From Escherichia coli (lineage in GTDB: Bacteria > Pseudomonadota > Gammaproteobacteria > Enterobacterales > Enterobacteriaceae), in the NCBI RefSeq assembly GCF_045037415.1, contig NZ_CP173438.1: 64,000 bases of DNA, one strand, 5' to 3'. Below the pieces are notes generated by a model. It worked only from the letters and a program-made list of their open reading frames with translations, was not told the origin of the DNA and ran no database searches. Shown here piece by piece: positions 26,776 to 31,437 of the stretch (the stretch's first letter is position 1; every line of letters begins with the position of its first letter). A program made the translations under genes and the position numbers.

Positions 26776-29451
26776 TTACTTCAACATATTACGAATGACA
26801 TAATGCAAAATGCCGTCGTTCTGGTAGTAGGTCAACTCCGTCGCGGTGTCGATACGACAATGGCAGGGTACGACTTCCTGGCTACCATCCGCGCGCGTAA
26901 GCGTCACCGGAACCGTCGCGCCGGGTTGTAGATTTTGCAGATCACCAATATCAATCTTCTCTTCCCCGGTAAGCTCTAACGTTTTACGCGTCACACCTTG
27001 TGGAAATTCCAGCGGCAGGATGCCCATGCCTATTAAATTCGAACGGTGAATTCGTTCAAACGATTCGGCAATCACAACACGAATACCAAGCAGACGCGGA
27101 CCTTTTGCCGCCCAGTCACGGCTGGAGCCTGATCCATACTCTTTCCCGGCAATCACCGCCAGCGGCGTTTGCTCCTGCTTATAGCGCATTGCGGCATCAT
27201 AAATAGAGACGACATCGCTGTCAGGTAAATGGCGCGTCATCCCCCCTTCAACGCCAGGCACCATTTCATTACGGATGCGAATATTGGCGAAGGTGCCGCG
27301 CATCATCACTTCATGGTTACCACGCCGCGAACCATAGGAGTTAAAGTCTTTCCGCTCAACACCCCGACCTTGTAGATATCGACCCGCCGGGCTGTCGGGC
27401 TTAATACTGCCCGCCGGAGAGATATGGTCAGTGGTGACTGAATCCCCCAGCATTGCGAGGATCCGCGCACCGTGAATATCTTCCACAGGTGCTGGTGTTG
27501 CCTGCATTTCATCAAAGAAAGGCGATAAGCGAATATAGGTTGAATCCTCCTGCCAACCGTAGGTATCGGATCGTGTGACGTTAATTTCCTTCCACTCGGC
27601 TGTGCCTTCAAAAACTTCTGCGTACTCTTTGCGGAACATTTCTGTGGAGACTTGGTCTACCGCACGGGCAATTTCTTGTGCCGATGGCCAGATATCTTTC
27701 AGAAATACCGGCTCGCCTTTGCGATCATGGCCGATAGGCTCAGAAGCCAGATTGATATTCATATTTCCCGCCAGCGCATAGGCAACCACCAGCGGCGGCG
27801 AGGCCAGCCAGTTGGTTTTAACCAGCGGATGGATACGGCCTTCAAAGTTACGGTTGCCGGACAGCACTGCACCGACGGTTAAATCGCCTTTTTTGATTGC
27901 CGTTTCGATAGGATCGGGCAACGGTCCCGAGTTACCAATACAGGTGGTACAACCGTATCCCACAAGGTTAAATCCCAGTTCATCGAGATACGGTGTCAGT
28001 TTCGCTTTTGCCAGATAATCAGAAACGACTTTCGAACCCGGTGCCAGCGACGCTTTGACCCATGGTTGCCGCTTGAGGCCCAGAGTTACGGCTTTTTTCG
28101 CCAGCAAGCCTGCGGCCATCAGCACACTTGGGTTAGAGGTGTTGGTGCACGACGTTATCGCAGCAATGACCACAGCGCCATCAGGTAACTGATACTGATG
28201 TCCGTTCATAACATAATCGACCGGCAGGCGATCTTTATGCGTGGCATTCACTTCCAGTTCGCTACTGGCAGCAAATGCTTTTGGTACATCGGGCAGTGCA
28301 ACGCGATCCTGCGGGCGTTTTGGCCCTGCCAGGCTCGCTTCAACGTCATTCATATCCAGTTCTAACACACTGGTAAAAATTGGTTCATCGCCCGGATTAC
28401 GCCACATGCCCTGCGCTTTGGCATATTTTTCGACCAACTCGACCTGATCTTCACTGCGCCCGCTTAAACGCATGTAATCGAGGGTGACAGCATCGATTGG
28501 GAAGAAGCCACAGGTGGCACCATATTCTGGCGACATATTGGCAATGGTGGCGCGATCCGCCAGCGGTAGTGAATCCAGCCCATCACCATAAAATTCGACG
28601 AATTTCCCCACCACGCCATGTTTGCGCAACATTTGGGTAACAGTGAGAACCAGGTCTGTGGCGGTAATACCTTCACGTAATTTTCCGGTAAGTTTAAAGC
28701 CCACTACGTCCGGGATAAGCATGGAAACCGGCTGGCCTAACATTGCGGCTTCTGCTTCGATGCCACCAACGCCCCACCCCAGCACGCCAAGGCCGTTGAT
28801 CATGGTGGTGTGCGAGTCAGTACCAACGAGTGTATCCGGATAAGCAATCCATTCACCGTCCTGCAATTCGCTCCACACTGCTTTGCCGAGATATTCGAGG
28901 TTAACCTGATGGCAAATGCCTGTGCCTGGCGGCACGACGCTAAACCGACTGAACGCCTGCTTTCCCCATTTCAGGAACACATAACGTTCGTGGTTGCGCT
29001 CCATTTCCAGGCGTACGTTTTCTTCAAATGCCTCATCATCACCAAAACGATCGACGGTCACCGAGTGGTCAATGACCAGGTCGACCGGTGAGAGCGGATT
29101 AACCTTTGCAGTATCGCCGCCGAGGCGTTTAACCGCTTCGCGCATTGCCGCCAGATCAACAACGGCAGGTACGCCGGTAAAGTCCTGCATCAGCACTCTT
29201 GCCGGGCGGTAGGCAATTTCACGGTCAGCATGGGCATTTTTCAGCCATCCCGCCAGCGCGTGGATATCCTCTTCGGTAACCGATTTACCATCCCGCCAGC
29301 GCAGCAGGTTTTCGAGCAAAACTTTGAATGACTTGGGTAGACGGGTGATATCGCCCAGTGATTTGGCAGCAAGCGGCAAGCTGTAGTAGTGGTAAGTTTT
29401 ATCTTTGGCCTGCAACGTGTCCTTACTGGCTTCTCGTAGGGTTGACGACAT
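26776..29451 (-). CDS. acnA: Aconitate hydratase A
   Basis: 891 aa with aconitase family signatures. Confidence 0.95.
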
Positions 29452-29809
29452 AGCTCCTCCTTAATGACAGGGTTGCGAAGCCCTGATTCTCTTCAGGGTG
29501 AATATTAAAGATAACACAAACATCGCGTAACGATTTGATAACAACCCAAATTGATAAAAGAGGAGAAACCTTGAGGCAAAGCAAACAGCGGGATCAGGGA
29601 TCAGTGAGTAATGATCCAGAGGAGTTCGGCCCAGAAGAGCATCGACAGAGAAAATGCGCCCATCCAGGACCAATATTTCATATTTGTGTTGATCATAGGC
29701 TACACCCTTAACGGTTATTACTTTGTGTTGAGATAACTCAACCTGTTATTGCTGCGGTGTATTAAAAGCCCTGTAATTCATTAAAAATGGGTAATAAGAA
29801 TGATGATAA

Positions 29810-29977
29810 TTATTGTTTCGGCTGATCATCTTCAGCAAACAGTTCTATAAAGGCTTGTTGCTGCGATGTTAGTTGCCAGTCGTCTGGAATAACGACGGAA
29901 CATTCCCGTTTTGCTTCTGGTTCATTGTCACTATGCTGACATAATGGTGACGACTCCAGTTGCTCCTGACCGACCAT
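29810..29977 (-). CDS. yciX: Small protein YciX-like (55 aa from MVGQEQ)
   Basis: Start overlaps the stop of the upstream peptide gene (ataaccATGg); the ORF track gives 29810..29998. Confidence 0.45.
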   Translation of the reverse strand: MVGQEQLESSPLCQHSDNEPEAKRECSVVIPDDWQLTSQQQAFIELFAEDDQPKQ

Positions 29978-29979
29978 GG

Positions 29980-30108
29980 TTATCCCCACAATTTCCAAAT
30001 AAGCAGTGCGACAACCACCCAGAAAAGTGCAGAACCAAGAAAAACCGCCAGCCAGGCTTTACGTTTTAATTCAGGATTGCGGCGGGGTTCCTGATTTCCA
30101 GAAGGCAT
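29980..30108 (-). CDS. Small membrane peptide (42 aa, MPSGNQEPRRNPELKRKAWLAVFLGSALFWVVVALLIWKLWG), YmiA-like
   Basis: GAGG Shine-Dalgarno 6 nt upstream of the ATG, single hydrophobic helix, stop/start coupling with the yciX-like ORF; an alternative start at 30120 gives 46 aa. Confidence 0.4.
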   Translation of the reverse strand: MPSGNQEPRRNPELKRKAWLAVFLGSALFWVVVALLIWKLWG

Positions 30109-30438
30109 TGCTAACCTCATATAATCGCCATCACTTATCAGCAAGACGTTGAACGATTGGTGTAATTAATCATACGATGAGACAAATCCTAAAGAAACTT
30201 TAGTCAAAAATCCAGCGAATTTACGAATCGTCTCCAGTGAATAATTCAATCTTTTGACCTGAAATAGATATTTGAAAACTGGAGTTTGCGAGGTGTGTAA
30301 TTAGACACTACTTTACAGGTAATTTACCCTATAAATATGAGGGATAAAAATATTGTGCACCGGATACAAATAAGTAACAAAGGAGAATATATTCCGGCAC
30401 CTTCGCTACATAAAAGGTGCCGAAAATAACGCAAGAAA

Positions 30439-31437
<999 letters not shown>

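Follow-up and report, generated by a model that had tools for sequence, protein, structure and literature searches.

The ymiA-yciX-ymiC locus between cysB and acnA in Escherichia coli: identity, a conserved ymiA/yciX junction and a deleted terminator-like hairpin

Introduction

A cluster of very small reading frames lies on the minus strand between cysB (30439-31413) and acnA (26776-29451) in the window, by which we mean the whole 64,000-nucleotide stretch of E. coli DNA analysed here. The original prediction, made from the sequence alone, described a 42-aa membrane peptide whose stop meets the start of a 55-aa YciX-like frame, together with a 31-codon hydrophobic frame closer to acnA, all of them easily missed. 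The question raised by this locus is whether such frames are genes and, if they are, how their expression is tied together and to that of acnA. A total of 56 ORFs of at least 20 aa fall within 3 kb around the locus, and since such short ORFs are frequent by chance their presence alone proves little; it is conservation that raises these three frames above chance. Our reading, to which we assign a probability of about 0.93, is that the locus is the known E. coli ymiA-yciX-ymiC operon, encoded on the minus strand and bounded by the cysB terminator and acnA.

Results

Identity and conservation of the three genes

The three frames coincide exactly with RefSeq CDSs (Table 1), the K-12 counterparts of which are ymiA (b4522), yciX (b4523) and ymiC (b4741). 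E. coli K-12 carries the same genes in the same order between the same neighbours, and the window proteins match those of K-12 at 44/46 residues for YmiA, 53/55 for YciX (the 55-aa frame of the original prediction) and 31/31 for YmiC (its 31-codon hydrophobic frame, present as described). Many E. coli chromosomes carry the 1081-bp region as a whole with 100% identity, and it was found in 5421 of the 5426 complete E. coli genomes. Two of the three products belong to curated families: YmiA scores 93.2 bits against NCBIfam NF000536 (cut-off 30) and 120 bits against Pfam PF22868 (cut-off 27), and YmiC scores 66.3 bits against NF041484 (cut-off 42) and 87.5 bits against PF23694 (cut-off 27). The description of the frames as easily missed is thus out of date for YmiA and YmiC, for which the annotation pipeline has dedicated models. 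The identity, expression and regulation of the locus are already annotated or published, and there is nothing new in the original observation itself.

Table 1. Features of the ymiA-yciX-ymiC locus, listed from cysB towards acnA in window coordinates.
Feature	Position	Strand	Remarks
Terminator-like hairpin after cysB	30392..30425	-	Operon boundary on the cysB side
Conserved non-coding block upstream of ymiA	30121..30215	-	Presumably promoter and 5' leader; alignment of 28 genera/species
ymiA, 46-aa RefSeq form (MRLAMPSGN...)	29980..30120	-	Single-pass membrane protein, basic N-terminal tail
GAGG (30118-30115), 6-nt spacer, internal ATG (30108-30106)	30106..30118	-	GAGG overlaps the annotated ATG (30120-30118)
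ymiA/yciX junction	29975..29987	-	GGGG 29987-29984, TAA 29982-29980, CC, ATG 29977-29975; read directly
yciX, 55 aa	29810..29977	-	RefSeq CDS, 53/55 to K-12; soluble, acidic
Rfam RF02079 (STnc180) match	29557..29769	-	182.6 bits against a gathering score of 50; whole model, positions 1-208
Hairpin GTTGAG-TTAT-CTCAAC in the yciX-ymiC spacer	29727..29742	-	Inner stem of the STnc180 model
ymiC, 31 aa	29601..29696	-	RefSeq CDS, small membrane protein; product MINTNMKYWSWMGAFSLSMLFWAELLWIITH
Junction of the 14-nt deletion relative to K-12 (CGGCGGGGTTGTCA)	29585..29586	-	3' arm and tail of the post-ymiC hairpin lost

Conservation of the frames among Enterobacteriaceae, proposed as a check in the original prediction, was examined by scanning one genome per species. 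A YmiA relative was present in 161 genomes, and the best 80 of these 161 loci were examined, all of them Enterobacteriaceae by record title except two unclassified Proteobacteria metagenome bins and a further record labelled Chryseobacterium; counts over 81 loci refer to these best 80 plus the window. Almost all of the 80 examined loci, like the window, have the gene order cysB-ymiA-yciX-ymiC-acnA, with yciX found in 78/81 and ymiC in 70/81. Nei-Gojobori dN/dS over the same set is 0.10 for YmiA, 0.24 for YciX and 0.22 for YmiC, the third codon position being the most variable in each gene, and all three frames are under purifying selection across the Enterobacteriaceae. The gene content of the operon also varies in a few groups: ymiC is absent from the Citrobacter freundii group (six loci) and the Pseudescherichia group (three loci), where a terminator lies directly 3' of yciX, and yciX is absent from Salmonella enterica subsp. 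arizonae and two other taxa, which retain ymiA and ymiC.

Ribosome footprints or tagging, the other evidence called for in the original prediction, are already available in published work for YmiA and YmiC. VanOrsdel et al. detected SPA-tagged YmiC with a sequence identical to that encoded in the window (PMC6001520), GFP-YmiA and GFP-YmiC are both membrane-localised (PMC11429745), and YmiA has been quantified by targeted mass spectrometry at ∼1000-3000 copies per cell (PMC12529367). Chance ORFs are ruled out as an explanation of the locus by the dN/dS values together with this protein detection. Direct detection of the YciX protein was not found in the literature accessible to us, and the reality of this gene rests on its conservation and annotation.

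The start of YmiA

The 42-codon frame runs from ATG 30108-30106 to TAA 29982-29980 on the minus strand and its product is MPSGNQEPRRNPELKRKAWLAVFLGSALFWVVVALLIWKLWG. As a membrane peptide the frame stands, with its GAGG element, a published membrane location and a single strongly hydrophobic segment (KD19 2.54 at residues 24-42) preceded by six K/R residues; its length of 42 aa, on the other hand, is that of the 2006 annotation, which has since become 46 aa. The window protein also shows the traits of the YmiA family, namely a transmembrane helix with a preceding basic KRK motif, within a K-R-K-A-W string that is invariant in the family alignment, and a location between cysB and acnA.

The comparison across genera points to a different YmiA start from the one supported by experiments in K-12. 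The arrangement GAGG-N6-ATG followed by a frame of exactly 42 codons occurs in 81/81 loci (the best 80 of 161 plus the window), whereas the upstream codon at -4, which is the annotated start in E. coli, is ATG in 54 of them, GTG in 5 and ACG, AAG or GCG in the remaining 22. Variable sites are of the non-wobble kind upstream of the internal ATG and of the wobble kind downstream of it, and the NCBIfam YmiA model has 42 positions, which match residues 5-46 of the 46-aa form. In K-12, by contrast, tetracycline ribosome profiling places the main YmiA signal 12 nt upstream, where the 46-aa form begins, and finds little at the 2006 start, and the tryptic peptide LAMPSGNQEPR proves that translation begins upstream of the internal Met (PMC4909307). 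The invariant internal start, the relaxed codon at -4 and the extent of the family model could all be read to mean that the 42-aa protein is the only functional YmiA, with the 46-aa form a minor and possibly Escherichia-specific by-product, but we consider this unlikely in view of both K-12 results and because no locus is without an in-frame ATG further upstream, whether at codon -4 or at codon -11. We conclude instead that the conserved protein is a 42-residue core to which E. coli adds four residues from the GAGG-overlapping ATG, and that both forms may be made; in the window strain translation would start, as in K-12, at ATG 30120 to give 46 aa, and probably at GAGG-N6-ATG 30108 as well (42 aa).

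Two features of the sequence ahead of the internal ATG deserve mention in their own right. The 33 nt upstream of it (30106-30141, minus strand) are more conserved than synonymous sites within the gene, and loss of both upstream ATGs, at codons -4 and -11, occurs in none of the loci, against about three such cases expected, a comparison uncorrected for phylogeny. A leader element, dual starts or chance arising from shared ancestry are all possibilities here. The ATG pattern was set aside as proof of a required N-terminal extension, given the small expectation (∼3 against 0) and the disregard of kinship.

The ymiA/yciX junction

The minus-strand letters at the junction read GGA TAA CC ATG G, so that yciX begins 2 nt past the ymiA stop, and the apposition described in the original prediction is borne out both in the window and beyond it. 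The yciX start falls within -4 to +4 nt of the end of the ymiA stop in 78/78 yciX-bearing loci and exactly 2 nt after it in 48 of these, with ATG as the start codon in all but one locus, which has GTG. The TAA-NN-ATG junction is common to K-12 and the window, the 2-nt spacer being CC in the window and CT in K-12. A Shine-Dalgarno-like GGGG is contained in the final two ymiA codons (TGG-GGN), ∼6 nt ahead of the yciX ATG, and TGGGGN precedes the ymiA stop in all 81 loci (as TGGAGC in one). A start near the upstream stop and a Shine-Dalgarno element inside the upstream ORF are together the geometry of a translationally coupled pair.

From this geometry we infer translational coupling of ymiA and yciX, for which the classical spacing and its conservation are the best available support. 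Partition-function folding in 19 species gave no consistent signal of masking at the yciX start, the mean accessibility being 0.41 against an mRNA average of 0.39. As the start is no less accessible than the rest of the mRNA, any coupling would operate through proximity or reinitiation rather than unmasking, and the 2-nt gap with GGGG in the last ymiA codons makes termination-reinitiation or a local hand-over the most likely route to yciX. Ribosomes ending ymiA at the TAA would then pass to the yciX ATG and produce YmiA and YciX in a linked ratio. The strict conservation of the junction speaks for a constant YmiA:YciX ratio, and possibly for a complex of the two.

The N-terminal half of YciX, a soluble and acidic protein with a net charge of -9, is variable, and its C-terminal part holds a conserved motif, IPxSWxLTxQQxAFIxxFxEDxxKKQ, in which W34, L36, Q40, F43 and I44 are invariant across loci. 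Searches with YciX against Pfam, NCBIfam and PDB sequences returned no significant relative and no curated family, and hhalign found it unrelated to both YmiA and YmiC. The AlphaFold2 model (pTM 0.34) is confident only at one helix, residues 38-47; as this short conserved helix is the only ordered part of the prediction, it suggests a partner-binding motif.

Relationship of YmiA and YmiC

Profile alignment with hhalign pairs YmiA residues 12-33 (in the 42-residue numbering) with YmiC residues 4-25, that is KRKAWLAVFLGSALFW with KYWSWMGAFSLSMLFW, at a probability of 87% and a score of 25.7, against 9.3 ± 2.4 (maximum 18.0) in 200 column shuffles. With a score ∼7 standard deviations above the shuffles, YmiA and YmiC look like paralogues at the level of their sequence profiles. 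The hydropathy of YmiC is borderline (KD19 1.54), and we would expect both proteins to be N-in single-pass membrane peptides. Two natural recombinants were also encountered, which join ymiA and ymiC at the same shared CCTGG and are reciprocal to each other: locus L083 (1501-1620) carries a ymiA::ymiC fusion without yciX, and locus L084 (1501-1605) a tandem duplication of the form ymiA-yciX-(ymiC::ymiA)-yciX-ymiC.

Promoter region and regulation

The operon is transcribed from upstream of ymiA in K-12, where a transcriptional reporter rises at low Mg2+ in a PhoQ-dependent manner (PMC11429745), and others have shown negligible promoter activity in the stretch just upstream of ymiC. A preprint (bioRxiv 10.1101/2020.05.05.079178) places the ymiC ORF within the 3'UTR of yciX and notes that it has no promoter of its own. 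Across genera, the nucleotide sequence of the ∼95 nt ahead of ymiA is strongly conserved and contains an invariant 9-mer, TTAGGATTT at 30192-30184; the window differs from K-12 in this region at only a few bases. A repeated GGATTT also occurs in the block. A PhoP box was sought as (T/G)GTTTA-N5-(T/G)GTTTA near -35, and no canonical box was present upstream of ymiA, where only 3-mismatch matches were seen (30179-30206); matches of this quality number 204 throughout the window against 141 expected by chance. Neither does the conserved block with TTAGGATTT fit the PhoP-box consensus. PhoQ dependence may, given the lack of a canonical box, be indirect.

Loss of the distal hairpin and the relationship to acnA

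A GC-rich hairpin followed by a T-run lies after ymiC in 66 of the 70 ymiC-bearing loci, typically in the form AAAACCTCGC-NNNN-GCGAGGTTTTTT. The K-12 version is weaker, CCCCGC-TGCG-GCGGGG followed by TTGTCATTT, and relative to K-12 (compared at positions 1873-1894 of its locus, L002) the window lacks 14 nt, including the 3' arm of the hairpin; the terminator-like site present after ymiC in K-12 was not found in the window. A junction-spanning query located the deletion allele in 1141 of 5426 complete E. coli genomes (21%), including an O6:K2:H1 strain, and since other Escherichia species retain the hairpin the deletion is derived. In most species a strong intrinsic terminator would close the operon; with its loss in the window strain some read-through into acnA would be expected, and such read-through in the deletion lineage is plausible from the sequence.

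These observations bear on a different reading of the locus, in which ymiC is mainly an upstream ORF or leader that tunes acnA, via its translation or via a hairpin, especially in the terminator-less strain. The distance from the end of the frame to the acnA ATG (29451) is 149 nt, and the intervening terminator is deleted in the window. One acnA promoter is said, after Cunningham, Gruer and Guest in 1997, to start ∼407 bp upstream, which would put ymiC on that acnA transcript. A strong Fur-site cluster, moreover, has been predicted at -371 of acnA (PMC2189734), which falls in the yciX-ymiC spacer. We nonetheless regard a leader role as improbable, because a strong terminator separates ymiC from acnA in 66/70 loci, 149 nt is too far for direct translational coupling, and a peptide with a dN/dS of 0.22 whose protein is found in the membrane is atypical of a pure leader peptide. 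As a separate observation, the AT-rich ATAATTATCATCATTCTTATTA at the yciX stop (29790-29812, minus strand) appears to match the predicted Fur-site cluster (PMC2189734).

ymiC and STnc180

Our preferred reading, that ymiC is the third protein-coding gene of the operon, also has to accommodate the Rfam family STnc180, the model of which is matched over its whole length by a segment that contains ymiC (Table 1). The full model is matched in the window, but its 3' terminator stem, intact in K-12, is broken in the window by the deletion and shows non-standard pairs together with an insertion of 9 nt. In the paper from which the name STnc180 comes, only bands of 500-2000 nt were seen and the RNA was classed as a processed mRNA species; taken with the Rfam match, this identifies STnc180 as the ymiC-coding 3' segment of the operon mRNA. 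That the segment is a non-coding sRNA in which the 31-codon frame is incidental, as the strong Rfam match (182.6 bits) and a spacer hairpin kept with many stem sequences might suggest, is very improbable and can be dismissed, because the discoverers put their bands down to a processed mRNA and because purifying selection on the frame and detection of the tagged protein both argue against an exclusively non-coding role.

As the distal gene of the operon, ymiC lies 113 nt beyond yciX and would initiate independently from GGTG-N6-ATG, the GGTG being a Shine-Dalgarno-like element at 29706-29703, 6 nt ahead of the ATG. A per-sequence hairpin search showed that a hairpin is retained at this place, its stem taking 33 distinct sequences among 69 loci; folding of the spacer alignment, which is gappy, with RNAalifold gave no consensus structure. 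No T-run follows the hairpin. The Rfam model also pairs ACACC (29760-29756) with GGTGT (29706-29702), which contains the ymiC Shine-Dalgarno element, and this predicted pairing would mask ymiC initiation. Both sides of it are nearly invariant, so covariation is uninformative on the pairing.

Discussion

The comparison of the window with K-12 and with its relatives across the Enterobacteriaceae places the three small frames in an operon that has already attracted experimental attention. In the work of Vellappan et al., YmiA and YmiC belong to a set of 17 small proteins that are induced at low Mg2+; overproduced YmiA caused a prolonged lag phase and longer cells, and strains deleted for ymiA or for ymiC showed no phenotype in the screen (PMC11429745). 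MgrB and MgtS resemble YmiA and YmiC in size, in their single transmembrane helix, in membrane location, in PhoQP-dependent induction and in the growth lag seen on overproduction, but there is no sequence relationship between them and the analogy is functional only. By analogy with other small membrane proteins of the PhoQP regulon, the most likely role of YmiA and YmiC would be to modulate a larger membrane protein.

The layout of the operon likewise has parallels in the PhoQP regulon. The mgtS-mgtT and yriA-yriB pairs are also low-Mg2+-induced small proteins encoded by adjacent cistrons on one transcript; their frames, however, overlap out of frame, whereas ymiA and yciX abut with a 2-nt gap and are followed by a third cistron 113 nt later.

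Two further ideas we put forward tentatively and regard as more doubtful than not: that acnA has become Mg2+-responsive in the deletion lineage by fusion to the operon, and that ymiA and ymiC are ancient paralogues that recombine at the shared CCTGG. If the second is true, a pair of ancient paralogues flanking yciX would make the locus a small model of how microprotein genes arise and turn over. The conservation of the ymiA/yciX junction, the conflict over the YmiA start, the paralogy and the loss of the terminator are the residual value of this analysis and could guide work on the operon. For the biology of the species, one E. coli lineage is without the terminator that insulates acnA from ymiA-yciX-ymiC. 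If the first idea is true, this loss fuses an operon responsive to low Mg2+ and PhoQ to acnA in about one fifth of E. coli, and the stress aconitase would be Mg2+-responsive in the deletion lineage only.
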